A stretch of 28,785 nucleotides of DNA from a bacterium (GCA_019750655.1 JAIEOG010000319.1:1-28785), one strand, 5' to 3'. Counted from the stretch's first letter, positions 1,069 to 20,039 are shown. Translations and numbers: made by a program. The notes: a model not told the origin generated them from the letters alone.

Positions 1069-2226
1069 CTAAACCTTCGCGCCAATCAAGCGTTGGACAG
1101 ATTGGTAGTGTTCTAGAAGCCCGCGCACGCGCGCGATGTTGATGGCCGGAACCTTGTTATTGCCTGCCCCTTCCATATCCACTGCCATCGTGAGGCTGTT
1201 GAGGATGGATTCCTCGGTCGTTTCAATCACGCTCTTATAGACAGGGTCGAGCGCGCTATCGCGGATCATTTTCACTTGGTGGAAATGATCCGTAGGGCGT
1301 TGGGGCACTTCATTGGCCGTTGAAAATCCAATGATAATTTCCCCGCTGCCATGCGCTCCGTAGCTTCCGACACGCCCGATGCCTAGAGCCGCGCGCCGGC
1401 AAACGCGGTTCATTTGCTGGGCACTTAAAGGCAAGTCGGTTCCCACTACGGCGATAATCGAACCGTAGTTATTCACACGGCGGGCATAAGCGCCTTGGGT
1501 TGGAAACAAAAGCCGCCCGACCGGGTAGCCGTCCATGCGCAGATCTTCCATGACACCGAAGTTGGAGCAGACCAAAACGCCGACGGTATAGGTTTTCCCG
1601 CCCATGTTCAGCACACGGCTCGAGGTACCAATGCCTGCTTTGAAATCACAACAGATCATTCCCGTGCCGGCGCCGACAGCGCCTTCTTCTACGGGGCCCG
1701 AGGTCGCGCCATCTAGCGCGCTGAATACATTCTGCGGCTTGATGTGGAGCCCAACGGCATCATTCAAAAAACTATCATCGCACTCACCCACTACGGGGAT
1801 GATCACTTCCTGCTGGTCGCGGATTTGCGGGTAGTGCTGGGCCATCCACTTTACGATGCCATCGCCCACGCGTCCGACGGAGAGCGTATTGGTCAAAGCA
1901 ATCGGCGTCTCTAATAGGCCCCATTCGGACAATTGCGTGTAACCAGAGACTTCGCCCGCCCCACTGAGAATGAAACCACCGCTAATGAGTTTGCGGTTGT
2001 AGATATCGTCGTTGGGCATGATGACCGTGACGCCCGTGCGCACTGGCCCGTTGCCTGGCTTGCGACGGCCCGAACCTTCAATGAGGGTAGTGTGCCCCAC
2101 TCGAACGCCCGGAACATCCGTAATGGCGTTGAGTGGACCCGTGGGGGTTGTGCCAATGGCGACGCCCAAGTCGCGCAGACGGCAACGGCTTTTGGCGTCT
2201 TCGCGGTATCTTTCAAAGAGGTTCAT
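1069..2226 (-). CDS. dmpA: DmpA/P1-family (S58) L-aminopeptidase/D-esterase (beta-peptidyl aminopeptidase-like)
   Basis: Motifs GPLNAITDVPGVRVGHTT, GAGTGMICCDFKAGIGTSSR, VLVCSNFG and the autoproteolytic G|S site (NYG|SIIAVVGTDLPL). ATG overlaps the upstream stop (ATGA, 2223-2226). Confidence 0.9.
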   Translation of the reverse strand: MNLFERYREDAKSRCRLRDLGVAIGTTPTGPLNAITDVPGVRVGHTTLIEGSGRRKPGNGPVRTGVTVIMPNDDIYNRKLISGGFILSGAGEVSGYTQLSEWGLLETPIALTNTLSVGRVGDGIVKWMAQHYPQIRDQQEVIIPVVGECDDSFLNDAVGLHIKPQNVFSALDGATSGPVEEGAVGAGTGMICCDFKAGIGTSSRVLNMGGKTYTVGVLVCSNFGVMEDLRMDGYPVGRLLFPTQGAYARRVNNYGSIIAVVGTDLPLSAQQMNRVCRRAALGIGRVGSYGAHGSGEIIIGFSTANEVPQRPTDHFHQVKMIRDSALDPVYKSVIETTEESILNSLTMAVDMEGAGNNKVPAINIARVRGLLEHYQSVQRLIGAKV

Positions 2227-4265
2227 GCAGGACGCAACTTACCCGCACTACGCCAGCGCTGCAACGCGGGCGTCAAAATGCGGTTAATAAGTGCCTCGAA
2301 CTCCAAGCCCGAACGCTCTGCCATCACTGCCAAGTCGCTAAAGCCGGGGCTTAGGCCTGGTAGCGGGTTGATTTCCAGGAAGTAAAGCTCGCCCTTAGCA
2401 TCGACTTTAAAATCAATGCGCGCGACATCGCGGCAACCCAAGGAGCGGTAAACCTTGCGCGCGAACGCCGCTATCTTGCGATCCATTTCTTTGCCCAAGG
2501 AAACCGGGCACTCAAGCTGGAAAATATTATTGGAATCGATGGGAAGGTTTTTCGCCTCAAACGAATAGACCGGGTAGCGGCCCGCATCGCGCAAGAAAAC
2601 AATCTCCATGGGCCCTAAGAGCCGCAGCGTCGTGTTCCCGAGCACACCAATCGTGAGCTCCCGGCCTTCGATGTACTCTTCGCAGAGCACGGGTTCTTTG
2701 GATTTATTCCATAGCTCGACGGCGACTTGCACCATCTCCTCTTGCGTGGAAACGACAGACTTGCCGCCAATGCCCTTCGAAGTGCCTTCGTGGTTAGGCT
2801 TTACAATGACAGGGAAACGCAGGCCCCCCTCAATGACTTTCCCGCCTTGGTAGAGACGGTAAGCAGGCGTCTGGATACCATCCTGGCTCAAAAGCTTTTT
2901 GGTAATCGCCTTATCGAGCGTAATGGCCATGCACGTGGCGTCGCTCGCCGTATGTTCAATGCCGAGCAGGTCGCAAATCGCAGGCACCTGCGCTTCGCGG
3001 GCGCGCTTGTTAGAGCCTTCGGCGATATTGAAGACTACGTCGACATTCGCGGCTTTTAGGTTTTCAGCCAGTGTCTTGTTCGCCTCAATACACAGAACTC
3101 GGCCGACTTTCTTCTGCAAGATAGAACTGATCGTGTCGACAGTATTCTGCGAGTCAAATTCTGCTTCGCGCTCGTAATCGGGGTCGCCGGGAGCTTTGCG
3201 CTTGAGGTTATAAACCAAAGCCACTTTCGGCATCTTCGTCGTAAAAATGCGGCGGGGCGATTTAAGCGACTTGCCCTGACGCTTCAGACGCGAGGTCGCG
3301 GCTTCGAAGATTTTCAAGATCGTCTGGTTGTAATCCAACCCTAACGTACGCGTGGCTTCAAAAAGCCCCGCTCCCTGCTGCAGGCTCGGTAAAGCGTTGA
3401 GCTCTAGGAAATAGACTTCACCTTCCGGCGTAATGCGGAAGTCCGCGCGTGCAAAATCCACCGCGCCCGTGACGGGCACAATGCGCTTCATCATTTCAAT
3501 GAGCTGCGCACGCGTCGCGGGTTCCAGTTCGGCTGGACAACGGACGGAAACGGCATCGTCTTGGAAATTTTTTAAGTCGTAGTCGTAGACGTTATCGCCA
3601 AAGCCTTGCTTAGTGCTGAGCACATATTCCAAAGGCTCCAGCACGCCCCCATCGCCAAGACCGGAGATATAAGGCACGGCCACATCACGCCCCAGGACGA
3701 AGCGCTCCACTAAGATCCCGTGTGGGAAAAGCTTCAAGCACTCCGCAGCGTAAGAAAGAAACGCGTCCGAATCTCGGCAAACCGAACGCGAAGTGATCCC
3801 TTTACTGGATCCCTCGTAGTTGGGTTTCACGAAGACCGGGTAAACGACGTCCGAGGCCACGGTTGCCAGTTCGTCCGCACTGTTGATGAAGTAGCCTTCG
3901 ATCACGGGCACGCCGCGCGTCGCGACCATTTGTTTCGTAAGAAATTTGTCGAGCGTCAGGAAGCAGCCATAGGGGCCAGAGCCGACATAGGGGAGTTGGA
4001 GTTGCTCGAAAAGCGTGGGCCCCAGACTCTCACGGCCGATGCCATAATAGCCTTCGGCGGTATTGAAAACGATATCGGGCTTGAGCTCACTAAGGCGCCG
4101 CAGCCATTCGGAGAGGCGCTCCACGGGGGGCATTTCGAGATCGAAAACTTCGTGGCCCACCGATGCCAAGGCGGTATGGATGGCTTGCACTGTCTCCGGC
4201 GTGTCGAACTCCGCTTGTTCTAAAGACTGGTCACGTTTGAGGTTGTAAACGAACGCGATCTTCAA
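2223..4265 (-). CDS. D-Ala-D-Ala-ligase-like protein with two tandem ATP-grasp modules
   Basis: Two homologous halves: KIAFVYNLK...AEFD...VFNTAEG...LDKFLTK...FVKPNYEGSSKG...ARADFR...FLELNALP and KVALVYNLK...AEFD...VFNIAEG...LDKAITK...IVKPNHEGTSKG...ARIDFK...FLEINPLPG. TTG start preceded by GGGAG. Confidence 0.88.
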   Translation of the reverse strand: MKIAFVYNLKRDQSLEQAEFDTPETVQAIHTALASVGHEVFDLEMPPVERLSEWLRRLSELKPDIVFNTAEGYYGIGRESLGPTLFEQLQLPYVGSGPYGCFLTLDKFLTKQMVATRGVPVIEGYFINSADELATVASDVVYPVFVKPNYEGSSKGITSRSVCRDSDAFLSYAAECLKLFPHGILVERFVLGRDVAVPYISGLGDGGVLEPLEYVLSTKQGFGDNVYDYDLKNFQDDAVSVRCPAELEPATRAQLIEMMKRIVPVTGAVDFARADFRITPEGEVYFLELNALPSLQQGAGLFEATRTLGLDYNQTILKIFEAATSRLKRQGKSLKSPRRIFTTKMPKVALVYNLKRKAPGDPDYEREAEFDSQNTVDTISSILQKKVGRVLCIEANKTLAENLKAANVDVVFNIAEGSNKRAREAQVPAICDLLGIEHTASDATCMAITLDKAITKKLLSQDGIQTPAYRLYQGGKVIEGGLRFPVIVKPNHEGTSKGIGGKSVVSTQEEMVQVAVELWNKSKEPVLCEEYIEGRELTIGVLGNTTLRLLGPMEIVFLRDAGRYPVYSFEAKNLPIDSNNIFQLECPVSLGKEMDRKIAAFARKVYRSLGCRDVARIDFKVDAKGELYFLEINPLPGLSPGFSDLAVMAERSGLEFEALINRILTPALQRWRSAGKLRPA

Positions 4266-5914: not shown

Positions 5915-6017
5915 GAGGCTGTTTTAACAAACCCGGGCCTAGACGTAAACAACGGGAATCATAGGCTTTGGATGGCCGGATTTCGTGTTTTCGCGGATTT
6001 CAGGTATAAGGCCGCCC

Positions 6018-6872
6018 ATGCGCCGAGCCTTAGCCCTTCTGAGCCTGATTTGCGGGATAGCCCTACCTTGCGCCTTTGAGATCACGCAGCAAGAAGCCCT
6101 CTTCCAAAGGGGCCTCCAGCACCTAGGGTGGTCGGAAGCCGACTTTGAACGCCAAGTGTCCCTTGCGGTCGACATCAGCGTGGGCCGCCCCGTTTCGACC
6201 GCGGACCTTGTCGAGGAAGAAGACCTAACGGTCGGTGGGGTGCGCGTCAGCGGTGCTATTCTCAATGCCTATGGGGCGCTTTTTAATTCGCTCGCCGCTA
6301 AACAGTTTCCGGCACCGCTTAAGTCGGTAGAAAACAAACTAGTGGTGATCACTCACCAGGATCCCTCTCTCCAAAAGAAGACCGCAGAATGGCTGTCCAA
6401 GTCCAAGCTGCGAGTTCCTGTTGTGGCACTGGTTTCGCCCGTATTTCCTTTGGAGACCACGGATATTGTCGATACCGGCAAAGTCGCCGTCCGATACTCT
6501 GCGGGAGGCGAGCTGCCTGGGATTGCAGCCAAGAAGGTGATTCTTTTAGGAGGGCACTGGAGTGCCTGCTTGCTTTCAACGATTGAAGATCTCGTCGTTT
6601 CGGGTTTCAAACAGGGGCTGAAAAAAGTCGAAATCCAGATCCTCCCCTCCCTCTCCTACACCAACCTTGCTGGTAAATCGCTCGCGGAAATCCACGACAA
6701 ACAAACCACCGCAAACCAAATTCGAAACTCGGTTAAAGAGCTAGAAAAAGCCGTACGCCTGCGCACGATGCACGTCGAAATCGTCGGCAGCCCCTCCGAA
6801 CCGAGCTGGAACAACGTCATCCGCATCACCTCTGGCGAACAGAAAGCGGAAATCCGCTTCGCTGAACTCTGA
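6018..6872 (+). CDS. Hypothetical secreted protein (weak cysteine-hydrolase-like segment)
   Basis: The ORF track starts at 5985; ATG 6018 gives a signal peptide (MRRALALLSLICGIALPCA). Contains KKVILLGGHWSACLLSTIEDL. Confidence 0.65.
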   Translation: MRRALALLSLICGIALPCAFEITQQEALFQRGLQHLGWSEADFERQVSLAVDISVGRPVSTADLVEEEDLTVGGVRVSGAILNAYGALFNSLAAKQFPAPLKSVENKLVVITHQDPSLQKKTAEWLSKSKLRVPVVALVSPVFPLETTDIVDTGKVAVRYSAGGELPGIAAKKVILLGGHWSACLLSTIEDLVVSGFKQGLKKVEIQILPSLSYTNLAGKSLAEIHDKQTTANQIRNSVKELEKAVRLRTMHVEIVGSPSEPSWNNVIRITSGEQKAEIRFAEL

Positions 6873-6876
6873 GCCT

Positions 6877-6891
6877 CTTAAGGTTTCTTAA
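6877..6891 (+). promoter_or_regulatory. CTTAA-N5-CTTAA direct repeat, putative OmpR-family response-regulator box upstream of the methyltransferase-kinase operon
   Basis: CTTAA GGTTT CTTAA (6877-6891), 10-bp period. The same motif occurs upstream of the response regulator. Confidence 0.6.
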
Positions 6892-6933
6892 CTCGCTAGT
6901 TCTCCCACCGGCGAGTTAACTCACAGCCCATCT

Positions 6934-7998
6934 ATGACAGAAAAGCGCGCACCTGAGCCCCTCGACGTGGCCGCTTCTGCACTTCTTAAGCGGCTCAACC
7001 AAGCTGCCCTGGTACCCGCTATTGCTCTGATTGCCGAACTGGAAATCCCCGACCTCTTAGCCGACGGAGAGCAGACAGCCGGCGCGCTCGCCCGCAAGAC
7101 GGGTTCGGATCCCCAGGCCCTTTACCGAATGCTCCGCGCTTTAGCAGCCGACGGGGTATTCGAAGAAAAACCCGGCCGCGTTTTCAAGAACACTGCTCTT
7201 GCCGAGCATCTGCGAAAAAAACACCCGAATTCTTTGCACGGCATTGCCCGCATGGCAGGGGCGTCCTGGAATTGGAATACGTGGGGGCACCTGCCCCATA
7301 GCATCCGCACCGGACAGTCGGCATTTGCGAATCTCCATGGGTGTGGCTTGTTCGAGTTTCTTAAAACATCCCCACCTGCAGCGCGGATCTTCCACGACGC
7401 AATGGGCTCAGGCGCTCGTAGCGCGGCTGCCGACGTGCTTTCCGCTTATGCGTTTGGCGCGCGCCCGCGGCACTTCGTGGATGTCGGTGGCGGAGTTGGA
7501 CACCTGCTCTTCCCACTTCTGGCAACGCACATAGAACACATCGGAACCCTCTTTGATGTCCCGAACGTCGCCCCCGCAGCAGAAGAAGGTATCCGCGCTA
7601 ACGCCCTCGAAACTCGCTGTGCCTTTGTCGGCGGGAACTTTTTCGATCACGTTCCGCCAGGGGCCGACACCTACATTCTGCGCAATATTCTGCACGACTG
7701 GGACGATGAACGCGCTCGGAGGATTCTCGATCGCTGCGCCTCCGCGATGGGCGCGGAAAGTCGATTGATCATTATCGAGCGCGTTTTAGATGTCGGCGGA
7801 CTCGGTGCGCTTCACGACTTACAAATGTTGCTATTGACCTCCGGCGGCAAAGAGCGGACTCTTGCTGAGTTCGAGGAATTACTCGCTGGTGCTGGCCTAA
7901 CCCTCGACGAAACCATATCAACCCCGGCGCAAAGGGTTTTGCTCATCGCCAGAAAATCGCAGAACGGTTTCCATGCAGGATCTTCGACAAGTCCTTAG
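6934..7998 (+). CDS. SAM-dependent O-methyltransferase, class II (dimerisation domain plus Methyltransf_2)
   Basis: N-terminal winged-helix dimerisation region (LEIPDLLADGEQTAGALA...LYRMLRALAADGVF), SAM motif VDVGGGVG, GNFFDHVP, and catalytic ILHDWDD. Confidence 0.93.
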   Translation: MTEKRAPEPLDVAASALLKRLNQAALVPAIALIAELEIPDLLADGEQTAGALARKTGSDPQALYRMLRALAADGVFEEKPGRVFKNTALAEHLRKKHPNSLHGIARMAGASWNWNTWGHLPHSIRTGQSAFANLHGCGLFEFLKTSPPAARIFHDAMGSGARSAAADVLSAYAFGARPRHFVDVGGGVGHLLFPLLATHIEHIGTLFDVPNVAPAAEEGIRANALETRCAFVGGNFFDHVPPGADTYILRNILHDWDDERARRILDRCASAMGAESRLIIIERVLDVGGLGALHDLQMLLLTSGGKERTLAEFEELLAGAGLTLDETISTPAQRVLLIARKSQNGFHAGSSTSP

Positions 7999-9583
7999 TC
8001 CCATTAGCTGGCTCATTGTCATTCTCGGGTTTCACCCGCTCTTCCTAATTCCATTCGAACCAACTCTTAAAGAATACCTCGTTTTAATGGTGGTAGACTC
8101 CACCGCCCTTTTCTTCGCAATGAAGATTGAACTGGCTGCTTTTTTGCGGAAATACCCACCGCCGGTAGAAAACATTTTCGATTTTGATGGCGAGAAGCTT
8201 TCGCGGCTACCCCTAGATCAACGGCGCAAGTTCTACGAGTACTACACGACATTCCCCTCGCGCCGCGCGGCTTTCACCTTGCCTGCAAGCTTCGTCAAAG
8301 CGCTCCCGGGATTTGCAGTGATTGTTTTCTATTGGCACCATGACCAGAGCTACTTCGCCCAGTTCGTGCAAGTTTTACTGGCGGCTTCGGTACCTTGGTT
8401 CTACGTTTTCGGCGCGTCGTTTATTGAAGCACATGCTTTCGTCTCTCGGAAATTCGCCGAGATGCACGAACGCTACGACTGGACAGAAGTTTTTGCAGGC
8501 GTCCGCCTTCCCGATCACCGCCGGGATTTCCGACAACACGAGAACATTTCCATGATCGCCATCGCAGGCTTTGTGATCGCGGTGCAAAGCATCGTGGTCG
8601 CGGGACATGGGCTCGATGGAGTGGAATGGCTGACACTCAAAATCACGATCATCGGTCTATCGGGCATTTGCTTGATGTCACGCATTTGGTATCTCAACCG
8701 CTCTTTCTTCTTGGGCGGTTTGGAATCCATCTTCGCAAAGCTCGCGGCGTTCGACCCACACCAACCTCAAAGAGCCCTGGCCTTGCACACCGCGCCTTTG
8801 CTCGCGCATTTCGAACTCACTTTCAATACGTTGTTGAGCAAACTGCGGGAGTATGAGCAAGAGCTCTCGCATTGGATCTACTCGGAGGCGGAGAAGAACC
8901 GCTTCAAAGCCATCGGGGAAGTCTCGGGGCTTGTGGTGCACGATATCAGCGCACCCCTGCATGTTATGAATTTCTGCGCCGAGAAACTCAAAACGGATCC
9001 CGCACCAGAAGACCGCGCAAAATACATCCACCGTATGCATGAGAGCCTAGGAATGGCGACGGAGCTGGTCGAATCGCTGCGCTCCTGGCTCAAAAACCCA
9101 AACCGTGGTTCCGCTTCGGCTGTGTATTTCGAAGCCCACACGCACGTGCTGAGGCTTTTAGAGTTGCGCTACTACGAAACCCCGGGCACCCAGATCAACT
9201 ACATCATTGATCCGCAAGTGCAGAACTTGAACATCGCGCTCCCTAAGCCGGACTTAATCCACGTCTTGTTCAATCTCTTTTCGAATAGCATTGAGAACCT
9301 ACTCTCCAACAAGACGCCGCAACCGACATTAGAAGTCGTACTGCACGCCCAAGACGCGGGCCGAGCCACCTTGCATGTCCGCGACAATGGATCGGGCTTG
9401 GATGCCGATCGCTTCGAAGAGCTCACCGGCTTTCAAACTTCCCAGAAAAGCCCCACCCGCGATGGATTAGGTTTGCGGCTCATTCGGCGCTTAGTCGAAC
9501 AGTATGGCGGCACCTTGAAGGTGGAACCCGCGCTCAGCCAAGGGACGTTGTTCCGCCTCGAACTTCCATTGAAGGCTAGCTAA
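7973..9583 (+). CDS. Membrane-bound sensor histidine kinase (~6 TM)
   Basis: About 6 hydrophobic segments in the first ~240 aa. H-box GLVVHDISAPL, N-box NLFSNS, G1 DNGSG, G2 GLGLRL. Overlaps the methyltransferase 3' end. Confidence 0.92.
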   Translation: MQDLRQVLSPISWLIVILGFHPLFLIPFEPTLKEYLVLMVVDSTALFFAMKIELAAFLRKYPPPVENIFDFDGEKLSRLPLDQRRKFYEYYTTFPSRRAAFTLPASFVKALPGFAVIVFYWHHDQSYFAQFVQVLLAASVPWFYVFGASFIEAHAFVSRKFAEMHERYDWTEVFAGVRLPDHRRDFRQHENISMIAIAGFVIAVQSIVVAGHGLDGVEWLTLKITIIGLSGICLMSRIWYLNRSFFLGGLESIFAKLAAFDPHQPQRALALHTAPLLAHFELTFNTLLSKLREYEQELSHWIYSEAEKNRFKAIGEVSGLVVHDISAPLHVMNFCAEKLKTDPAPEDRAKYIHRMHESLGMATELVESLRSWLKNPNRGSASAVYFEAHTHVLRLLELRYYETPGTQINYIIDPQVQNLNIALPKPDLIHVLFNLFSNSIENLLSNKTPQPTLEVVLHAQDAGRATLHVRDNGSGLDADRFEELTGFQTSQKSPTRDGLGLRLIRRLVEQYGGTLKVEPALSQGTLFRLELPLKAS

Positions 9584-10481
9584 ACGGGTGGACAGGCCCG
9601 GTCGGCTCCTCAGGTCTCCGGCCGAAGTACAAAGACACAGCCTCTGTACATACCGCCTGTGCAACCACCACATGCCCCTTCAGGCTTTGTGGCGTAATCT
9701 CCCGAAAATGTACCTGCCAGTCAGACCGTTTGCGCTCGCTCCCATGGTACCGCTTGCCCGCTAACCAATCGGTAAGGTGTTGGGTGTTCGGAGGGTAAAG
9801 ATAGTAGGCCTGGTGGTAGTCGGGCGTCGGCGAGAAACTCGGCTCTTCCAACAAGGCCTGTTCCTCCGACAGAAAGCCGTAACCCTGGAGACATTCTCGC
9901 TCGGCAGCATGGAGAGCCGCCGCGAGATGGCCGCGCGCGGCTGTGCCGTAGATGCGGCAGCGGCCTTCTCGGCGTGGCCAGCCAAAAATCCCGACAGTAA
10001 CCGCCTCTTCGCTGAGGCTAGAAAATGCATAAGCCTCAAATGCGTACTCGGATTCGAGCTCTCGGAAAACCCCGCTCGCCACCCAGTCCAACCGCTGGGG
10101 CAGCGTTTCGCCCCTCCACGATCGTAAAAGCCTATCGCGCTCGACCAATTCGTAAAGCGCCGCCTGAGTGGCCCGCGCGTGAGAGCCCCCTAGCGCAACC
10201 CCATTGGACTTCGAAAGCGCCCAGCTGCCTTGCACGGGCGTGGAAGGCTGCTCGAGAATGCTGATCCGTTCGAGAAGTTCGAAGTAGGCTCGCTCCATGG
10301 CCCGCCCTTCTAAGCAGGCGGCACTCCCGTGGGTTGCGAGCCGATCCCCCTGGTGGGCCACCAAACCCGCAAGCTGCAGAACATAAGGGCCACGCTGGAG
10401 GGACCGTTCAAGCACCTCTCCTAAGGCCCAGCCTTCTGGAAGCGGAACCTCTTCGCGTAACGCCTGAAGCTCAGAACTCAT
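9576..10481 (-). CDS. YcaO-like protein (compact, 301 aa)
   Basis: ATP/Mg motifs RAMERAYFELLER and SNGVALG...ALYELVERD, GTAARG...AERECLQ, and the Pro-rich C-terminus GPVHPFS. Start chosen at ATG 10481 (MSSELQ), overlapping the upstream stop. The ORF-track start 10607 lies inside the upstream gene. Confidence 0.82.
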   Translation of the reverse strand: MSSELQALREEVPLPEGWALGEVLERSLQRGPYVLQLAGLVAHQGDRLATHGSAACLEGRAMERAYFELLERISILEQPSTPVQGSWALSKSNGVALGGSHARATQAALYELVERDRLLRSWRGETLPQRLDWVASGVFRELESEYAFEAYAFSSLSEEAVTVGIFGWPRREGRCRIYGTAARGHLAAALHAAERECLQGYGFLSEEQALLEEPSFSPTPDYHQAYYLYPPNTQHLTDWLAGKRYHGSERKRSDWQVHFREITPQSLKGHVVVAQAVCTEAVSLYFGRRPEEPTGPVHPFS

Positions 10482-11130
10482 CGACCTTGCCCACTTCCTC
10501 AAAAAAGCGCTCATAGAGGTGCATCGCCATTTCGAGAGAACTGAGCATTTTCTCAACGGCACAATGGCCTGCCAGCCGATCGAGATCGTGGAGGAGTTCG
10601 GCCGCATGTTCTTTGTCCAACTCCGAGTGGTTTTTCACAACCGTCACGAAGTTTGTAGGCAGATTGCAGGCTTTTTCCAAATCCCGCAGCCATTCGGGCG
10701 ATGCCACTACAGTCAGGTACTCCGCCAAGAATATGTAAGCGAGGTAGAGGGACGGATCTTCCTTGATCAGCGCAAAAACGTAATTCTCCAGGGCTAGGAC
10801 GTAAAACGAGACGCGCCGCTGATCGCGGACATCAAACTTTTCTACTAAGCGTTCCACATCGCGAGCCGCCCAGAGGTCGTGATCGACTTCCTCGTGGATC
10901 TTGGAGGCGAAATAGGCAGCGAGTTCGGGCTCATTGCGCCTTAAGGCTTCTGCCTGCGCCGACTTTAAATGGTGCGGCGTTTTGGCAATCATGTAGTGCA
11001 CGTTATTGAGGTAATGAAAAAGATTGCGCGGCTTGAGCGATCCATTGCGCGTGTTTACGAAAAAAGGCGACTGCTGCGCCTGCAGACTCGCCCACTTGGC
11101 GACTTTCACTTGTAGTAATTGCGATATCAT
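10471..11130 (-). CDS. Heme-oxygenase-like dimetal oxidase (HDO; TenA/PqqC/CADD-like iron-containing redox enzyme)
   Basis: All-helical 219 aa with ligand-type motifs IHEEVDHD, LAEYL and HSELDKEH (H-x3-D-x2-H). ATG 11130 is preceded by GGAG (11140-11137). Confidence 0.85.
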   Translation of the reverse strand: MISQLLQVKVAKWASLQAQQSPFFVNTRNGSLKPRNLFHYLNNVHYMIAKTPHHLKSAQAEALRRNEPELAAYFASKIHEEVDHDLWAARDVERLVEKFDVRDQRRVSFYVLALENYVFALIKEDPSLYLAYIFLAEYLTVVASPEWLRDLEKACNLPTNFVTVVKNHSELDKEHAAELLHDLDRLAGHCAVEKMLSSLEMAMHLYERFFEEVGKVDEF

Positions 11131-11153
11131 AGGCTTCTCCCAAGAAATCCAGC

Positions 11154-11183
11154 GCCGGCCCTCTGGCACACCAGAGAACCGGC
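11154..11183 (-). promoter_or_regulatory. Stem-loop between the small ORF and the HDO gene (mRNA stabiliser/attenuator-like)
   Basis: Minus strand GCCGGTTCTCTGG-TGTG-CCAGAGGGCCGGC: a 13-bp stem (2 G-U pairs) with a 4-nt loop, 10 nt after the small-ORF stop. No U-tract follows. Confidence 0.7.
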
Positions 11184-11193
11184 TTTTCCAGCA

Positions 11194-11226
11194 TTAGATG
11201 CAATACTGCGCGAATTTCTTCATCAT
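11194..11226 (-). CDS. Putative 10-aa precursor peptide MMKKFAQYCI
   Basis: Minus strand: TGA(GNAT stop)AAGGAGG-CCCCC-ATG ATG AAG AAA TTC GCG CAG TAT TGC ATC TAA. A perfect Shine-Dalgarno lies 5 nt (or 8 nt) from the ATG, in the gap between GNAT and HDO, followed by a hairpin. Confidence 0.68.
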   Translation of the reverse strand: MMKKFAQYCI

Positions 11227-11238
11227 GGGGGCCTCCTT

Positions 11239-11856
11239 TCAATGCTGCAGCTGGGGTTTGGTCCCCCAACAAAACTGTTTCAAAAACGCTTCGAGACTCC
11301 GCTGCGTTAGAAATTTCGTGAGACACACATTGGCTCCCCAGCGCTCGGAAAGCTCATAGCCCGTTACGGTGAATCCGAGCTTGGTCAAGATATGGATATT
11401 GGCGAGATTCGCCGGCGAGACATGGGCCTGCGCACGCTCCATCCCCCGCGCCGCGAGCGCCTCCAAAAAGCGAGCGAAAAACTCTTGGAAGTGCCCCTGC
11501 CCTTGGTGTGAGGGCAGAAAGGAAACATGGCGCAGATAGTAAGTGCTCCAATCGAGCGCATTGCCGACGTACACCCCTACCGTGCGGCCCTCGTCGTGGA
11601 AACGGAAGAGATCCGCGTGGCGGCTGTAGAATCCCTCCTTCTCCGCCCAAGATTCCGGCAGGGGCGAAAAACCGCCCTCCGCGATTGAAGCGGCGTAGAT
11701 TTCTTTGAAATGGCGCTGGAAAAACTCTCGGACCGTAGCGATAGATGTCTCTTCGGCTTGAATGCCCCCGCTTAAGCGGCAGGGGAAAAAAGGAGCCCAC
11801 GTGCCGGGATCGGAGTGGGTTGGGTTCTCTCTCATCTCTGAAATCGAGTGAGTCAT
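11239..11856 (-). CDS. GNAT-family N-acyltransferase
   Basis: Motif A FLPSHQGQGHF and motif B VSPANLANIHILTKLGF. ATG preceded by AGGGGG. Confidence 0.85.
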   Translation of the reverse strand: MTHSISEMRENPTHSDPGTWAPFFPCRLSGGIQAEETSIATVREFFQRHFKEIYAASIAEGGFSPLPESWAEKEGFYSRHADLFRFHDEGRTVGVYVGNALDWSTYYLRHVSFLPSHQGQGHFQEFFARFLEALAARGMERAQAHVSPANLANIHILTKLGFTVTGYELSERWGANVCLTKFLTQRSLEAFLKQFCWGTKPQLQH

Positions 11857-11906
11857 ACGGCCCCCTAGTCCCGAGAACTAAACAACGCTAGGGGGGCAAG
11901 TTCGAG

Positions 11907-11941
11907 TTAAGTCCCCTTTTTTTCGGTTAGGAATTATTAAC
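11907..11941 (-). promoter_or_regulatory. Phased CTTAA-like half-sites upstream of the GNAT-peptide-HDO-YcaO operon
   Basis: Minus strand GTTAA (11941-37), CCTAA (11931-27) and CTTAA (11911-07) lie in an exact 10-bp register. CTTAACTCG is shared with 6887-6895. Confidence 0.45.
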
Positions 11942-12668
11942 CGACGCAAGACTGGAGGCGGTAGCTACCACTCGGAAGAAACGCGATTTCGAGTCCGAGC
12001 TCGGAAATCTTTTTGCGCAAGGAAGAAAGGTGGACGTCGAGCGTCTTGGAATCCACCGCGACATCGTTCCAAACGCGTTTCAAGATTTCGTCCCGGCTCA
12101 CTTGGTACCCGGGGGAGGCATGGAAAATCGAAAGGATCTGGAATTCCTTTGCCGTGAGCCGATTCTTCTTCCCATGGGCAATCACATTCAAGGCAATGCT
12201 ATCGAGCTGGAAGAGCGGCTCGGGCGCCGCTTCACCGGCGAGCAACCTTTCGAGCTTCACAATCAACTCCCCCTTCCCAATGGGCTTTGTCAGAAAATCC
12301 CGAGCGCCAAGCTCAAAGCAGCTCCGCAGGGTATCTAGGTCGTCGACTGAGGAGAGAACAACAAAGGGAATTCCCGCTATCCGGGCCGCGCTATGGGGGC
12401 CTTTTAGAAATTGCAGGAAGGATTCTCCCGGGAGGCGCAGATCCGCTAAAAGCAGGTCGGGCCGGGGGCGAGTCTCTAAGGCGCTACAGAACTCCTCTAC
12501 CGACTGGAGGAATGTCAGGCTGTACCGTAAGGCGAGGACCTCTTCGTACACAAAGCGTACGCCGGGGTCGTCTTCGATAATCCAGATGGATTTGGAAGTA
12601 TGTCCGTTCACGCGCCCGCCTGAGGAAAAGGTTGGGCGCAAACTACTCCGCGCCAGGGTCTTCATCAA
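11937..12668 (-). CDS. OmpR/PhoB-family response regulator
   Basis: Receiver (IIEDD, LLLADLRLPG, DFLTKP) plus winged helix (LTAKEFQIL...SRDEILKRVW...TLDVHLSSLRKKI). The true start may be GTG 12611. Confidence 0.93.
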   Translation of the reverse strand: MMKTLARSSLRPTFSSGGRVNGHTSKSIWIIEDDPGVRFVYEEVLALRYSLTFLQSVEEFCSALETRPRPDLLLADLRLPGESFLQFLKGPHSAARIAGIPFVVLSSVDDLDTLRSCFELGARDFLTKPIGKGELIVKLERLLAGEAAPEPLFQLDSIALNVIAHGKKNRLTAKEFQILSIFHASPGYQVSRDEILKRVWNDVAVDSKTLDVHLSSLRKKISELGLEIAFLPSGSYRLQSCVG

Positions 12669-12679
12669 GCCCGGCGCGG

Positions 12680-12694
12680 TTAAGACTTTTTAAG
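12680..12694 (-). promoter_or_regulatory. CTTAA-N5-CTTAA direct repeat upstream of the response regulator (autoregulation candidate)
   Basis: Minus strand CTTAA AAAGT CTTAA (12694-12680), in the 43-nt intergenic gap. Confidence 0.6.
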
Positions 12695-12711: not shown

Positions 12712-13479
12712 TTAGTGCTTCACAGCGGCTTTAGCCGGAGTCGCTTTCACAGCAGTACCGGGCTTAGCCGTCGAATGAGCCGACGTCGGGGTGCGGTTGC
12801 CCGTCGGAGGTGTGATACCCGGCTTCTGGCCAGGGACCGGAAGGGTTCCCGCTGCACGCACTGCCGGCGGAGGCGCCGTCACGGGGCGTTCCGTCACAAC
12901 GGCCACCAAGGTTTCGCCCTTGTCGCCCTTTTGGTTATAAAGGGAAACTTTATTGCCCCGGCTATTCCATTGCGTATAGACCAAGCCCCCTTTGGAGCAG
13001 CTTAAGCCATACTGAGAGTGGACCATCGGAGACAATTCTTTGCAATTCGCTGGGCCACTCGTTTCGGGAGTTCCCAAAATCGTGCTAGCCCGTGTCCCGT
13101 AACCTTCTACGAGTTTTTCCTGCTCGCCCATGAAAGCTTCGACGCGGGCAACGACACCAAACTTGGTCGTCACTTCAATTTGTTTAAAGAGAGGGCTAAC
13201 AGCAGCGCACTTGTACGTTTGCTCATCGCCCTTCGCGTGGCCAGGCTCGCACTTTTTAAAGGCGGGCAAAGTTTTCAGACGCTCTTCCTTCAAGCCGAGT
13301 GGGAATTGCACGATGAACATGGGTTGCGCCGTCGGGCGCTTCCCCAAGCCGCGTGTCAGCGACCCTTTCAGCTTTGGAGAGAAGTAAAACCCAGCGGCCA
13401 CACCGACAATCGCGACGAAAGCTGCTGCTGCCAAAGTTAGTTTTGCAAAACCAGACTGGTTCAAGGCTTTGATTTTCAT
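12712..13479 (-). CDS. Hypothetical membrane-anchored protein with prepilin-like N-terminus and Pro/Thr/Ala/Lys-rich tail
   Basis: MKIKALNQSG|FAKLTLAAAAFVAIVGVAAGFYF, several Cys, and a low-complexity C-terminus (TAPPPAV...TAKPGTAVKATPAKAAVKH). Confidence 0.75.
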   Translation of the reverse strand: MKIKALNQSGFAKLTLAAAAFVAIVGVAAGFYFSPKLKGSLTRGLGKRPTAQPMFIVQFPLGLKEERLKTLPAFKKCEPGHAKGDEQTYKCAAVSPLFKQIEVTTKFGVVARVEAFMGEQEKLVEGYGTRASTILGTPETSGPANCKELSPMVHSQYGLSCSKGGLVYTQWNSRGNKVSLYNQKGDKGETLVAVVTERPVTAPPPAVRAAGTLPVPGQKPGITPPTGNRTPTSAHSTAKPGTAVKATPAKAAVKH

Positions 13480-14259: not shown

Positions 14260-16053
14260 TTACTGAGATTCTAATTCTGCCCAACGCGCGTAGAGTCTAT
14301 CGACTTCGGCTTGAGCTTGGGCGAGTTCCGAAAAAATTTCCGTGAGGCGGCCGGCGTTACTTTGGTTTTCGGGAGAAGAGCTTTGGGCTTCGAGAGTGGT
14401 GACGCGATCTTCGGCGGCGCGGATTTTGGATTCCATCTCCGCGAGTTCACGCGTTTCTTTGTAACTCAGTTTGCGCTTCTTCGATTCGCCAGGGGTTTTT
14501 GACGACGCCGCATCCGTGGTTTTGGCCTCGGCTTTATAGGCCTTCCAGCGTGCAGTGCGGGCATTTTCCCATTGGGCATAGCCCGCGTACGCAATCACTT
14601 CTCCGGGGGTTTGGATCGCATCAGGGAAAGCGAGGATCTCATCGGCCACTTGATCTAAGAAATAGCGGTCGTGGGTCACGAGCACTACGGCCCCATCGAA
14701 ACTCTCTAGGCAGTCCTGCAGTACGTTGAGCGTTTCCATATCGAGATCGTTAGTTGGCTCGTCGAGTACTAGTACATTGGCTTGTTCCAGCATGAGAAGC
14801 GCCAAGGTTACCCGACTCTGCTCTCCCCCAGAGAGCTTGCCGATTTTCATATCGATTTGCTCACGGCGGAACAGAAAGCGATCTAGGTAGCCATTGATGT
14901 GGACCAAAGTCCCTCGGTAATTCACCTGATCGCCCGTGGGGCAGATAGTTTTGCGCAGAGTGAGCTCAGGGTCGAGACGCTCTCGGTTTTGCTCAAAGTA
15001 CGCCACGCGCAAGTGTTCCGAACGGTAAACACGGCCCGAATCCGGTTCTTCACCGCCGAGCAAAACACGGATGAGCGTGGACTTCCCACTGCCATTCGTC
15101 CCTAACAGGCCAATCCGACTCCGCGGGCCAATAAAAACCTCTAGATTCTTAAACAGAAGGCGATCGCCATAGGCCTTCGTAATAGCCTGCGCCTCAAGCA
15201 ACCGCTTGGGCTTTTTGTCCAGGCTCTGAAACTCGAACTTCGCAGACCGCGTTTGATTGCGGGCGCTAATCTCTTCGACTTGATCTGAAAGCACTGCATG
15301 CGCCTGGATACGGGCCTGTTGCTTGGTCGTGCGCGCCTTCGCCCCTTGACGCAACCATTCCGTCTCTCGGCGCAAAGTGTTCTTAAGCTGCGCTTCTTGC
15401 TTCTGCTGAACATCCAGCAAGAGCTCTTTGCGCTCTAGGTATTTTGCGTAGTCCCCTGAGACCGACAAAATCCCGCCTGGGTTTCGGGGGTCGAGCTCCA
15501 AAATCCGATTCGTCACCCGCTGCAAAAACTGGCGATCGTGAGTCACGGTAAGTGTGGCGAATTCCGCCCGCGCTAAAAAAGCTTCGAGCCAGAGAATCGA
15601 TTCGATGTCGAGATGGTTGGTAGGTTCATCCAACAAAAGCAGCGAGGGGTCCTTAACGAGTTCTCGCGCAAGGGCGACGCGCTTGCGCCACCCACCTGAG
15701 AGCTCCCCAATGGGCCGATGGGCCATGCCGGAGAGCTCGAGTTTAGAAAGAATCTGGCCCGCAAGCGCACCCGTGACGGTTTCTCCAACCGTATCTTCCA
15801 AAGGCAACCGCGGCGTCTGCTCCAAATACCCAACTCGCAAACCCTTCTGCCGCGATATTTCCCCGCTATCGGGAGTATCCGCACCGGCAAGAAGCCTAAG
15901 CAGCGTAGATTTCCCCGCCCCGTTAGGCCCGATAAGCCCAATATGGTCCGCCGAATCGACAGCAAACGTCAGAGCCTCAAACAGCTCCCGAGATCCAAAA
16001 GCCTTCGAAATTTCTTTTGTTGCTAAGAGAATCGCCACAACGGCTTTTAACAC
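14260..16053 (-). CDS. uup: ABC-F family ATPase, Uup-like
   Basis: Two ABC cassettes (GPNGAGKS/LSGG/LLLDEPTNHLD; GTNGSGKS/LSGGE/LDEPTNDLD), linker KARTTKQQARI, and C-terminal coiled coil KRKLSYKE. Possible GTG start at 16038. Confidence 0.88.
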   Translation of the reverse strand: MLKAVVAILLATKEISKAFGSRELFEALTFAVDSADHIGLIGPNGAGKSTLLRLLAGADTPDSGEISRQKGLRVGYLEQTPRLPLEDTVGETVTGALAGQILSKLELSGMAHRPIGELSGGWRKRVALARELVKDPSLLLLDEPTNHLDIESILWLEAFLARAEFATLTVTHDRQFLQRVTNRILELDPRNPGGILSVSGDYAKYLERKELLLDVQQKQEAQLKNTLRRETEWLRQGAKARTTKQQARIQAHAVLSDQVEEISARNQTRSAKFEFQSLDKKPKRLLEAQAITKAYGDRLLFKNLEVFIGPRSRIGLLGTNGSGKSTLIRVLLGGEEPDSGRVYRSEHLRVAYFEQNRERLDPELTLRKTICPTGDQVNYRGTLVHINGYLDRFLFRREQIDMKIGKLSGGEQSRVTLALLMLEQANVLVLDEPTNDLDMETLNVLQDCLESFDGAVVLVTHDRYFLDQVADEILAFPDAIQTPGEVIAYAGYAQWENARTARWKAYKAEAKTTDAASSKTPGESKKRKLSYKETRELAEMESKIRAAEDRVTTLEAQSSSPENQSNAGRLTEIFSELAQAQAEVDRLYARWAELESQ

Positions 16054-16054
16054 A

Positions 16055-17113
16055 TCAGAGGTTTAATCGAAACCGGACTTCGCCTATGTTTTCGGGGCCG
16101 TTTCCTCGATCGAGGTAGCGGTAGAAGATATAGGCTGCAAGAGCGGGGTCTAGGTCGAGAATAGTCCCGGCCTGGGCGTGTTGGATATTTTGCGGGCCAT
16201 TGAGCGTCTCAAGACGGCCAAATAGCTTGGTGCCTGGGAAGAACGGTGTCTGGAGTGTGGCCGCCATTCCAAAGGGGCCTGTCGTCCGGATGCTGTCGGT
16301 CAGCATCCCTCCGAAGCATTCTGCACCGATGCGCCAGTCCGTACCTTCAAACCGCATTTCCGTGAAGACGTTTGCGACCCAATCCGAACGGTAGTTAACG
16401 CTCGCGGAGTCGGCTTGCTGGTGGTAGAAGCCCGCTGCGCCCCACATCCACTGCAGATTCCCGACGTGAAAGGTCGCTCGGAGTCCACCCGTAAGAGCCT
16501 TGGAGTTATTCGTATTGAGATTGAACAAGCCGCTGCCATTGAATGCACCGACATGAATCAAGACATCCTTCACGGGCTCGTAACGGATCTCGGCGCCGAT
16601 ATCACGGCCAATGAAAAGCGCACGGTGCGTTTCGTTGTAATCCGGGAGCGCCACACCTGAAAGATCCGGCGACCACCAGGGATTGAACGTTGGAGTGAAT
16701 AATCCAAACTTCAAGGACCACTCGGATCCCTGCCCCAGACGCTCAGGCGTATGGAGATCGATATACCCTTCCACGGGCAGAACGACCGGCAAGAGAACCG
16801 TCGAAAATTCCCGCGTCTGGCCCAGGGAAAATCGGTAGCTGATATGCTCGCCCGCCTCGCCCCAAGCCGTTAGGCGAACAGACGGAATGGAAAAACCTTG
16901 AACGACGACCCCGCCCGCTTGGTAGGACGCATCCAAGCGCAAACCCACGAGGAGAAGCTGGCGGCGGCTTAGACTCCCAAAAAGCGAAGGGCGCGCAGCG
17001 GGTTCGCCTTCCGCAGTGGCCGTGTCGGCCAACGGAGGTGCGTCGGTGAGGGTTTCATCGGCCCACGCCGCCGTCGATAAAAGGACTAACAGAATCCAAC
17101 GCATGTGCCTCAC
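16055..17113 (-). CDS. Outer-membrane beta-barrel/porin (OprO/OprP-like)
   Basis: Signal peptide (MRWILLVLLSTAAWA), alternating amphipathic strands, motifs GRDIGAEIRY and GAFNGSG, terminal strand EVRFRLNL. Start overlaps the pilS stop. Confidence 0.7.
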   Translation of the reverse strand: MRHMRWILLVLLSTAAWADETLTDAPPLADTATAEGEPAARPSLFGSLSRRQLLLVGLRLDASYQAGGVVVQGFSIPSVRLTAWGEAGEHISYRFSLGQTREFSTVLLPVVLPVEGYIDLHTPERLGQGSEWSLKFGLFTPTFNPWWSPDLSGVALPDYNETHRALFIGRDIGAEIRYEPVKDVLIHVGAFNGSGLFNLNTNNSKALTGGLRATFHVGNLQWMWGAAGFYHQQADSASVNYRSDWVANVFTEMRFEGTDWRIGAECFGGMLTDSIRTTGPFGMAATLQTPFFPGTKLFGRLETLNGPQNIQHAQAGTILDLDPALAAYIFYRYLDRGNGPENIGEVRFRLNL

Positions 17114-18780
17114 CCGACCGCCGGAAGGTGGATTTCAAACTCAGTCCCCTTCCCGACAGTTGATTGCACGCGGATTTCTCCACGCATCGCTTCGATAATC
17201 TTGTAAGCAGTCGCAAGCCCCAGGCCCGTGCCCTTTTCCTTGGTGGTAAAGAACGGCTCGTAAAGGTGCGAAAGCGTCTTTTCCGACATCCCCTGCCCCT
17301 GATCACGCACCCAAAACCGCACGCGTCCCGTGCCGGCTCTGGCGCACCCGACTTCAATCACGCCCGGTTTGTCCATCGACTGGATGGCATTGATGACGAG
17401 ATTCAAGAGGACCTGCCGAAGCTTTTCGGGCTGTGCATGCGCAAAGATGTCGGGCTCATAGGCCTCTCGCAGCTCGATATCCGTACGGACATTCACGCCA
17501 CCTTTGAGCGATTGAATTTTGCCTGGCTTATCCGGATGCCGGAGAGCAAAGAGCACGTCGGCAATGAGCTTGGGTAGGTCCACTGGCTCAAGCTTGAGAT
17601 TGGCGGGTTTCACAAAATCGAGAAACTCGGAGATGAGCCGATTCAGGCGATCGATCTCGCGCAACGCAATGTCCATGAGCTTTTGGTTTTCCCCGCCCAC
17701 TACTTCACGAGGTAAAGAAGAACGCAGCATTTCCACGCTGGCACTCATCCCCGCCAAGGGATTGCGGATCTCGTGTGCAATCCCGGCCGCCAGCTGCCCG
17801 ACGGCGGCGAGTTTTTCATTCTGCTTTACGCGTTGTTCGAGATTCAAAACCTTGGTGACATCCTGGAAAAGCAGAACAAACCCTTCAGTCGATTCTCCGT
17901 GAAGCAACCCCCCGGCTCCATTTCCTTCGAGGGCAGCCACGTCCCCACGCAAGAGGGCCGCATGCCCACTTTGCTGAAACTCGACGACTTGCTGCAGGCG
18001 CGTACGTGACTCACTCCGCTCGAAGAACGGCAGGAGCCCCGGCGCAGCCTCCTGCAGGGTCTTTCCTACCACCGTGGTTTCCAAACCCAGCAAGTGGCTG
18101 GCTGCGGGATTCAGAAAGCCAATCCGCCAGTGTGCATCCACTGTCAGAACGCCCGTGGGCATCTCGGAGAGAATGCGCTGTTGGAGCGCAATGAGTTCAT
18201 CCACGCGGCGGCTTTTATCGGCGAGACTTAGTGTCGTGCGTTGGAGCTCCTCGCTCAAATACCCGCCGACCATCCCAAGCGTGAAAAACAGAGCCGTATT
18301 CACGCCCCAGAGCATCCAGCTCCCCGGATCGCCCTGGACAAACAGAATAGCCGCGAGCCCTACACTGGCACCTAACGCCGCCCCCAAAGCTGCGCGTTGG
18401 TACAGAATGAGTGCTACGGAAAGGATCTGGATGAGGTAGAGAAGCGAATAGAGGCTTTCTTTACCGTCGGAAAGAAAAATCCAAACGGAGATAAGAAAGC
18501 AATCAAAAGCAACTTGCGTGAGAGCTACCCAACGACTCGGCGGCAGGCGTTCCACAATCAAAGAGGAAAGCGCATTGAATCCGAAAGCGACACACAAAAG
18601 CGCATAGCCCAAGACCAACGATGGTCCCACTCCCGTCGTCTGGAAGATTTGTTGGATAACCCCGACTAGCAATAGGCCATAGAGCACGGCCAGACGCGCG
18701 ATCATCAGCCATTGGCAGGCGCGGGAAAGATCGATTTGCGGCCCAGGCATCCAGGCCGCTTGGCGTGCACGGGCCAACAT
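17110..18780 (-). CDS. pilS: PilS-like sensor histidine kinase (multi-TM, PAS, HisKA, HATPase)
   Basis: Multi-TM N-terminus, PAS (ILSEMPTGVLTVD...LNPAA), H-box AAGIAHEIRNPL, NLVINA, FFTTKEKGTGLGL. Position directly after pilC. Confidence 0.82.
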   Translation of the reverse strand: MLARARQAAWMPGPQIDLSRACQWLMIARLAVLYGLLLVGVIQQIFQTTGVGPSLVLGYALLCVAFGFNALSSLIVERLPPSRWVALTQVAFDCFLISVWIFLSDGKESLYSLLYLIQILSVALILYQRAALGAALGASVGLAAILFVQGDPGSWMLWGVNTALFFTLGMVGGYLSEELQRTTLSLADKSRRVDELIALQQRILSEMPTGVLTVDAHWRIGFLNPAASHLLGLETTVVGKTLQEAAPGLLPFFERSESRTRLQQVVEFQQSGHAALLRGDVAALEGNGAGGLLHGESTEGFVLLFQDVTKVLNLEQRVKQNEKLAAVGQLAAGIAHEIRNPLAGMSASVEMLRSSLPREVVGGENQKLMDIALREIDRLNRLISEFLDFVKPANLKLEPVDLPKLIADVLFALRHPDKPGKIQSLKGGVNVRTDIELREAYEPDIFAHAQPEKLRQVLLNLVINAIQSMDKPGVIEVGCARAGTGRVRFWVRDQGQGMSEKTLSHLYEPFFTTKEKGTGLGLATAYKIIEAMRGEIRVQSTVGKGTEFEIHLPAVG

Positions 18781-20030: not shown

Positions 20031-20039
20031 CGCTTACCC

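Follow-up and report, generated by a model that had tools for sequence, protein, structure and literature searches.

A tiny conserved peptide gene beside a compact YcaO enzyme suggests a minimal, leaderless RiPP-type cassette linked to sensor kinases

Here, we describe a gene cluster on a 28,785-nucleotide stretch of bacterial DNA (GCA_019750655.1 JAIEOG010000319.1:1-28785, hereafter the window, meaning the whole stretch) in which an 11-codon peptide gene lies among genes for a GNAT acyltransferase, a haem-oxygenase-like dimetal oxidase (HDO) and a compact YcaO enzyme, next to a sensor kinase and a response regulator. The cluster probably encodes a minimal, leaderless cassette of the type that yields ribosomally made peptides with post-translational modifications (RiPPs), in which YcaO would cyclodehydrate the penultimate cysteine of the peptide, tailoring would follow and a dedicated two-component system would control expression. 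The peptides seem to belong to a family, so far undescribed, of very small products that enzymes modify and that have a link to cell signalling; literature searches found no published description of the cassette. An original prediction, made from the window alone, had proposed a RiPP-based signalling system and knew of no described class with this combination of genes; no matching published class was found. That reading held for the conserved small open reading frame (ORF), the identity of the HDO, the link to the kinase and the promoter repeats, but not for tyrosine O-methylation as part of the system or for the HDO as a core enzyme.

The small gene (11226-11194, minus strand) reads ATG ATG AAG AAA TTC GCG CAG TAT TGC ATC TAA, a frame of 11 codons including the stop. 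Read from the first ATG it gives MMKKFAQYCI, and from the second (11223) MKKFAQYCI; AAGGAGG stands 5 nt before the first ATG as a ribosome-binding site (RBS). The gene is missing from every ORF list. Gene callers do not see such a precursor, and the family as a whole therefore escapes standard genome mining. For comparison, an alignment of 42 YcaO homologues was used to retrieve 55 genomic loci, and the comparisons reported here cover 57 loci, window included. A scan of genome contigs with the window's YcaO as a single query found nothing; the alignment-based scan did find loci.

A frame of 9–10 codons with a strong RBS and the motif M-K-K-(K/R)-F-A-x-x-[C/S/T]-hydrophobic-stop lies beside YcaO in 42 of the 57 loci. 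The related loci, 0.94 Mb in all, match the motif 42 times, whereas none of 20 shuffled versions matches it at all. This bears out the hidden small ORF noted earlier and shows that it is conserved in the related loci. MKKKFA is also a frequent beginning of signal peptides, and a rough estimate put the chance matches to a DNA pattern across metagenomes far too high for such a pattern to be informative. The penultimate residue is Cys in 16 peptides, Ser in 11 and Thr in 15, and nothing else (n = 42), and the last residue is Phe or Leu in 35 of the 42. Across the family peptides, Ala is written GCA (14), GCT (9), GCG (9) or GCC (8), Phe is written TTC (23) or TTT (17), and Ser is encoded by both AGY and TCN. 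Given that the residues are fixed while synonymous codons vary freely, selection acts on the peptide itself.

The window's HDO has one relative among 5.8 billion clustered proteins, 43% identical, and on the 2-kb contig of that relative, 70 nt upstream of its HDO gene, stands ATG AAG AAG AAA TTC GCA CAA TAT TGC TTC TAA (MKKKFAQYCF), with its own AAAGGAG and a terminator-like hairpin behind. Despite the low identity of the two oxidases, the two peptide genes differ by synonymous changes plus two residues. A second locus, reached via a YcaO homologue, has MKKFALVCF at the equivalent place. Overall, the peptide is present in 35 of 37 HDO-bearing loci; one of the two HDO loci without a match (L013) lies at a contig edge and the other (L041) carries a stop-loss allele. 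In this latter locus (L041:9132-9953; Sorangium sp. So ce1128, complete genome), the frame MKKYATLCA continues through AAA in place of the stop and in-frame into HDO, and can be read either as a stop-loss allele or as a natural peptide-HDO fusion. The GNAT gene is downstream of YcaO there, and this is the sole locus of the set that does not come from a metagenome-assembled genome.

A multi-core precursor was found in one locus only (L073:1277-1450, plus strand). It has 57 residues with five ...A-x-x-[C/S]-F units, three of which are SPE-AAQVCF repeats whose DNA differs at synonymous sites. The gene order is histidine kinase, precursor, HDO, YcaO, and the locus is the second YcaO locus of the genome that also holds L047. 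Multi-core precursors are a hallmark of RiPP pathways, for example those of cyanobactins and thiovarsolins. Behind the single peptide genes, the 75 nt after the stop fold with z < -2 in 28 of the 42 loci (mean z = -3.1), often with a U-tract behind; RiPP clusters usually have a hairpin at this place, after the precursor gene and before the enzymes. On this comparative evidence we regard the small ORF as a conserved gene; its product is most likely the substrate of YcaO, and its reading as a RiPP precursor is well supported. A lipoprotein signal peptide (L-x-G-C) was considered and rejected, given that 26 of 42 peptides have Ser or Thr in place of Cys and that only one more residue follows before the stop.

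ORF listing and family scans put all genes of the cluster where the original prediction had placed them:

6877..6891, plus strand: CTTAAGGTTTCTTAA, direct repeat with a 10-bp period; exact match, upstream of the O-methyltransferase/kinase operon
6934-7998, plus strand: O-methyltransferase; Pfam Methyltransf_2, E = 3e-40, plus a Dimerisation domain
7973-9583, plus strand: sensor histidine kinase; HisKA and HATPase_c, with an N-terminal domain of 5-6 transmembrane (TM) segments
9576-10481, minus strand: YcaO, compact and stand-alone, 301 aa; PF02624, E = 9e-14
10471-11130, minus strand: HDO, 219 residues; identified by profile, model and ligand residues
11183-11154, minus strand: 13-bp stem-loop in the interval between the peptide gene and HDO; read from the sequence
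11226-11194, minus strand: candidate precursor-peptide gene, MMKKFAQYCI; supported by its RBS and its recurrence in relatives
11239-11856, minus strand: GNAT acyltransferase; Pfam Acetyltransf_1
11937-12668, minus strand: OmpR/PhoB-type response regulator; Response_reg and Trans_reg_C, PhoB-like, E = 4e-23
12680..12694, minus strand: CTTAAAAAGTCTTAA, direct repeat; exact match, upstream of the regulator/GNAT operon

The genes form two convergent units, O-methyltransferase–kinase on the plus strand and regulator–GNAT–peptide–HDO–YcaO on the minus strand, and the stop codons of kinase and YcaO overlap tail to tail (9576-9583). The O-methyltransferase and kinase ORFs overlap by 26 nt, the GNAT stop directly adjoins the RBS of the peptide gene, and HDO is translationally coupled to YcaO, whose ATG overlaps the HDO stop. 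The regulator is the first gene of the minus-strand GNAT operon, and its true start codon is uncertain. A plus-strand ORF at 12013-12693 was discarded as the regulator given that it has no domain. Between the regulator stop and the GNAT start lies an inverted repeat, CCCCCTAG ... CTAGGGGG (11863-11900, minus strand), which could be a terminator or attenuator that separates expression of the regulator from that of the cassette.

YcaO scores 52 bits against the PF02624 cut-off of 25.7, and its AlphaFold model (pLDDT 94) retrieves only YcaO structures at E < 1e-5 in Foldseek, the best being the M. kandleri YcaO, followed by McbD, LynD and E. coli YcaO. The ExxER, S-N-G and ExxERD ATP-binding motifs are invariant in the alignment of 42 homologues, a pattern that points to an ATP-dependent amide-activating enzyme. 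The window's protein is the shortest of the family: compared with all 41 aligned homologues, it has an internal deletion of ~30 residues behind the ExxER helix, yet its model remains confident. Conserved gene families near YcaO are limited to GNAT, HDO or a radical S-adenosylmethionine (SAM) enzyme, and kinases/regulators; no E1-like/Ocin-ThiF partner and no RiPP recognition element (RRE) is among them. Measured against what thiazole/oxazole-modified microcins and linear azol(in)e-containing peptides (TOMM/LAP) require, the precursor has no leader and has a single invariant Cys/Ser/Thr at the penultimate position. Among 1.84 billion clusters at 50% identity, 473 represent the family at E <= 1e-30; it is large yet almost entirely metagenomic.

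Taken as a single sequence, the window's HDO matches PF14518 at only E = 0.026, whereas a 32-sequence HDO profile run against the PDB reaches 3dde (haem-oxygenase-like) at 5e-18, together with CADD/4-aminobenzoate synthase, TenA homologues and UndA. The HDO model (pLDDT 96) aligns with CADD at a TM-score of 0.8 and also matches UndA, PolF, HrmI, BesC and PqqC. Residues E81, H84, D91, E137, H168, D172 and H175 are invariant in the 32 sequences, and all of these except D91 are the six metal ligands (three His, three carboxylates) of a seven-helix haem-oxygenase-like fold. HDO accompanies the peptide in 35 loci; the other seven peptide loci, and never the HDO loci, have a B12-binding radical-SAM enzyme of ~560 residues beside the cassette, encoded at these positions:

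L005:7428-9158: radical-SAM gene
L007:4607-6337: radical-SAM gene
L014:7403-9010: radical-SAM gene
L015:878-2197: radical-SAM gene
L029:7392-9065: radical-SAM gene
L032:6714-8456: radical-SAM gene
L057:3319-5001: radical-SAM gene

HDO and the B12-radical-SAM enzyme exclude each other, a pattern often seen with the tailoring enzymes of RiPP clusters. Hence, the predicted identity of the oxidase is upheld by the CADD match and the invariant ligands, but the core role given to it is not, and by its distribution HDO is accessory. A phytochrome-like reading, haem oxygenase plus GAF kinase, was rejected given the dimetal ligands and the seven loci in which HDO is absent.

GNAT is present in 34 peptide-bearing loci, often overlapping the peptide start, and is absent from a minority. 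The core set across the loci is GNAT, peptide and YcaO. The nearest solved structures of GNAT are YqjY, polyamine acetyltransferases, Naa30 and RimI, the latter two being N-terminal acetyltransferases, and a subfamily search returned generic acetyltransferase matches only. A phmmer search of the 57 related loci gave no homologue of the O-methyltransferase, a lineage-specific accessory gene of small-molecule type. Tyrosine O-methylation had been proposed as part of the system; with the enzyme lacking a homologue in the other loci and Tyr occupying the equivalent position in only 3 of the 42 peptides, it would be a local decoration at most.

A sensor kinase adjoins the cassette in almost every locus with enough flank, so the link to kinase and regulator that had been noted in the window is conserved across the related loci. 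The kinases have several architectures: 6-TM with OmpR, STK-AAA-GAF-HK-REC of ~1840 aa, 7TMR-DISM, and a kinase upstream of the multi-core precursor. The window's kinase has 5-6 hydrophobic segments within its first 240 residues, and this membrane sensor region has no Pfam family. Twelve cassette-linked kinases align with it over the full length, sensor region included, at 26-38% identity, with the conserved sensor-region motifs SPxSW, FPxRRA, LHxxxDWTEVF and LPLHSSxxLARFExTFN, and outside the cassette-linked kinases this 6-TM sensor domain is not conserved. The twelve come from Bdellovibrionota-type loci, where a kinase of ~540 residues and an OmpR regulator converge on YcaO with overlapping 3' ends; in the window, the regulator has moved to the first place in the GNAT operon. 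In loci of Myxococcota type, the protein of ~1840 residues (Pkinase-AAA_16-GAF-HisKA-HATPase-REC) follows YcaO on the same strand and has no consistent membrane segments. Oligoflexus-type loci have the 7TMR-DISM kinase.

The two outer promoters of the window share an exact CTTAA-N5-CTTAA, at 6877-6891 (plus) and 12680-12694 (minus). With one mismatch allowed, the window holds three matches versus 0.97 expected. A third promoter box, which had been placed before GNAT, was not confirmed, given that just a shifted CTTAA...ACTTG is found there. The promoter repeats themselves recur in five relatives, L001, L003 (with three boxes), L020, L026 and L036, where CTTAAG-type direct repeats at 10-bp spacing stand no more than 300 nt upstream of the cassette. 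Repeat density is 0.85/kb upstream of the cassette versus 0.04/kb over all loci, a 21-fold enrichment. Direct-repeat geometry with 10-bp spacing is typical of OmpR/PhoB-family binding sites, and the CTTAAG repeats are candidate binding sites of the OmpR-type regulator. From the placement, enrichment and OmpR/PhoB-like geometry of the repeats, a single autoregulated regulon that comprises the cassette and its own two-component system is probable, and regulation of the cassette by the adjacent two-component system is likely. A sigma-70 promoter scan of the cluster gave no matches and was uninformative.

The pathway that we propose would begin with the 9–10-residue product of the small ORF (MKKFAQYCI) as substrate. 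YcaO, with ATP, would activate the amide before the penultimate Cys and form a thiazoline, and in relatives Ser would give an oxazoline and Thr a methyloxazoline; formation of such an azoline is the most likely first step, as we infer from the residues allowed at this position. HDO would then oxidize the peptide, with dehydrogenation, side-chain desaturation or C-terminal oxidative decarboxylation as possible reactions, GNAT would acylate the N-terminus or a Lys, and the O-methyltransferase would add its lineage-specific decoration. The stem-loop behind the peptide gene may set the ratio of precursor to enzymes, and the cassette, the 6-TM kinase and the OmpR regulator would act as one regulon through regulator binding to the CTTAAG direct repeats, possibly with feedback of the product on the kinase.

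Several observations weigh against this pathway. YcaO is remote from all characterized azoline formers: the family profile reaches TruD, LynD, MusD and archaeal thioamide-forming YcaOs at only 5e-7 to 5e-4 (TruD 5e-7), the window's protein scores 39.8 bits against the 219-bit cut-off of TIGR03604 (SagD type), and the nearest structural neighbour is an archaeal thioamide-forming YcaO. The PxPxP C-terminus is missing too, the family ending in ...VHPI(A/V) and the window's protein in PVHPFS. No leader peptide, RRE/E1-like partner, protease or exporter is conserved in the related loci, in agreement with the earlier statement that no transporter, protease or RRE is visible; none is conserved among the cassette neighbours. 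GNAT could equally serve as an immunity enzyme. Expression evidence was sought, and the sequencing runs that hold the region are DNA of drinking-water metagenome only, with no RNA.

Some of these points suit another chemistry on the same substrate, in which YcaO would install a backbone thioamide or amidine, not an azoline. In structure, YcaO comes closest to the M. kandleri enzyme, which forms thioamides independently of TfuA; the PxPxP C-terminus that azoline formers have is missing from the family, and the sole RiPP pathway with a haem-oxygenase-like enzyme found in the literature is thioamidated. However, a search of the window's own genome (93% complete) gave no TfuA (PF07812), which is not among the conserved neighbours either, and the strict Cys/Ser/Thr at one position suits a cyclodehydratase, whereas thioamidation has no such need; we therefore consider a thioamide or amidine distinctly unlikely. 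It is very improbable that the small ORF is instead a regulatory leader peptide, a translated upstream ORF that attenuates HDO/YcaO expression at the hairpin while the enzymes use another substrate. A short ORF followed by a terminator-like hairpin upstream of enzymes does fit attenuation, and the peptide gene is upstream of HDO in most loci. However, it lies directly upstream of YcaO in seven, ~1.2 kb downstream of YcaO but still between GNAT and HDO in L012 and L027, and on the opposite strand in L033, and this varying position counts against a fixed leader-peptide role. The conserved penultimate Cys/Ser/Thr and the C-terminal hydrophobic residue match YcaO chemistry, and the multi-core precursor of L073 is not explicable as an attenuator.

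Two further explanations concern what the product does. An autoinducer loop, which extends the azoline cassette proposed above, would make the modified peptide the specific ligand of the adjacent kinase, with the regulator activating the cassette and its own genes; we see this as possible but short of probable. In its favour are the adjacency of kinase and cassette across four unrelated architectures, the sensor domain that only cassette-linked 6-TM kinases conserve, and direct repeats at both the cassette promoter and the kinase-operon promoter. Against it are the lack of a conserved exporter or processing protease and the Myxococcota kinases, which have no consistent membrane segments, so that sensing there would be cytoplasmic and an exported pheromone is therefore not the sole possibility. 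The adjacency fits equally well a kinase that regulates production on another cue. That the modified peptide is the kinase's ligand is plausible; a fuller version, with a 9–10-residue azoline peptide as dedicated ligand, sensed in the membrane by 6-TM kinases and in the cytoplasm via GAF by the STK-AAA-GAF-HK-REC proteins, strikes us as rather doubtful. If true, it would amount to a previously unknown peptide-based signal-transduction module, one into which two phyla of predatory bacteria have drawn kinases of at least four architectures. The peptide could also be an antibiotic or Trojan-horse peptide, microcin C- or trifolitoxin-like, with a toxic warhead, GNAT acetylating the processed product for self-immunity and the two-component system only timing production. 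The tiny ORF, hairpin, modification enzymes and nearby GNAT mirror microcin C; the carriers come from predatory phyla and the cassette is patchy among close relatives. TfxH, a GNAT of the trifolitoxin cluster, confers immunity (10.64898/2025.12.02.691738). However, no exporter, resistant-target copy or adenylyltransferase was found, in most loci GNAT lies upstream of the peptide and is coupled to it in translation, which does not resemble an immunity gene under regulation of its own, and so tight a kinase linkage is unusual for antibiotic clusters, which makes an antibiotic unlikely.

Among the closest known systems is thiovarsolin (varAYTO of Streptomyces varsoviensis; PMC6511847). There too, YcaO and a haem-oxygenase-like tailoring enzyme act on a short core of ribosomal origin, the precursor is a repetitive multi-core one like that of L073, and the product bears an N-acetyl group. 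In that YcaO pathway the haem-oxygenase-like VarO acts as a dehydrogenase (PMC6511847). Thiovarsolin differs in that it needs TfuA, makes a thioamide and has a long repetitive precursor with cores that have no Cys/Ser/Thr requirement, no linked kinase and actinomycete hosts. Microcin C (mccA, 7 codons) and trifolitoxin/tiarins resemble the cassette in having a very small precursor gene, a hairpin and then enzymes, as well as a cluster GNAT (TfxH). However, microcin C has C-terminal adenylation by a ThiF-like enzyme and an exporter, and no MccB-type ThiF adenylyltransferase is in the window's cluster or among the conserved neighbours; trifolitoxin has TfxB/C dehydrogenases, a 42-residue precursor and an exporter. 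In HDO, the fold and the E/H/E/H/D/H ligand pattern are those of CADD/UndA/BesC, whose characterized members act on free amino acids, fatty acids or their own residues, whereas the genomic context here points to a peptide substrate. Agr/Com quorum sensing uses an HPK10 kinase with a LytTR regulator and a dedicated processing/export protein; here, the kinase is HisKA, the regulator is OmpR and no such protein is conserved.

Bottromycin shares with the cassette the lack of an N-terminal leader, stand-alone YcaOs without E1/RRE, a thiazoline at a C-terminal Cys, B12-radical-SAM methyltransferases and an O-methyltransferase. It differs in its follower peptide, two YcaOs, P450, hydrolase and ~44-residue precursor, and it is not known to have an HDO, a GNAT or a two-component system. 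Biarylitides (5-codon precursor plus P450) likewise have a leaderless precursor of <=10 residues that is recognized directly by its enzyme; they differ in having a P450 biaryl cross-link and are not known to have a YcaO, HDO or kinase linkage. Given that each of the TOMM/LAP, YcaO-TfuA, Agr-type and microcin C systems has defining features that are absent here, the cassette would be a new form of YcaO-dependent RiPP biosynthesis outside the named classes. It would rank among the smallest RiPP systems, with a leaderless precursor of 9–10 residues recognized directly by a compact YcaO without RRE/E1, and bears on how YcaOs recognize leaderless substrates. Only one other YcaO pathway would then have an oxidase of the haem-oxygenase-like kind, and the B12-radical-SAM version offers a natural comparison of tailoring chemistry.

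The loci come from genomes labelled Myxococcota (Polyangiaceae, Sorangium, Labilithrix), Bdellovibrionota (Oligoflexia, Bacteriovoracaceae) or with older proteobacterial labels, and from the kinase coupling, which is conserved in both Myxococcota and Bdellovibrionota, the cassette may serve in signalling or help to control behaviour related to predation. The window is an entire contig of a 3.25-Mb assembly that is 93% complete, and kinship with the genomes of L018 and L020 indicates that its genome belongs to Bdellovibrionota. The cassette is patchy, with true HDO orthologues in 2 of 40 relatives and in 0 of 6 genomes of the same genus. The window's DNA is present in drinking-water metagenomes. 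YcaO loci without the peptide do not form a separate clade, as had been considered, but are scattered through the tree, and at least some of them are second copies in genomes with a peptide-HDO locus elsewhere (L071, L073). One clade of peptide-less loci has a PAPS-reductase-family gene directly upstream of YcaO (L024:1337-2416, L042:8908-9981, L046:8857-9954, L056:8462-9517) and may be a different system, perhaps one of sulfur insertion.

Elsewhere in the window, a peptidase S58 (DmpA) gene on the minus strand (1069-4265) is coupled to the gene for a protein of 680 residues that has two ATP-grasp modules of D-Ala-D-Ala-ligase-like type; this pair is not kept beside the cassette in relatives. 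The ORFs bordering the cluster, at 5985-6872 (plus, 295 residues) and 12712-13479 (minus, 255 residues), have no Pfam/NCBIfam match and are not kept beside the cassette elsewhere. The flank at 14260-22852 (minus) contains type IV pilus genes (T2SSF and two T2SSE ATPases) along with genes for an ABC-F protein and a 6-TM kinase resembling PilS, all of which appear to be housekeeping context.

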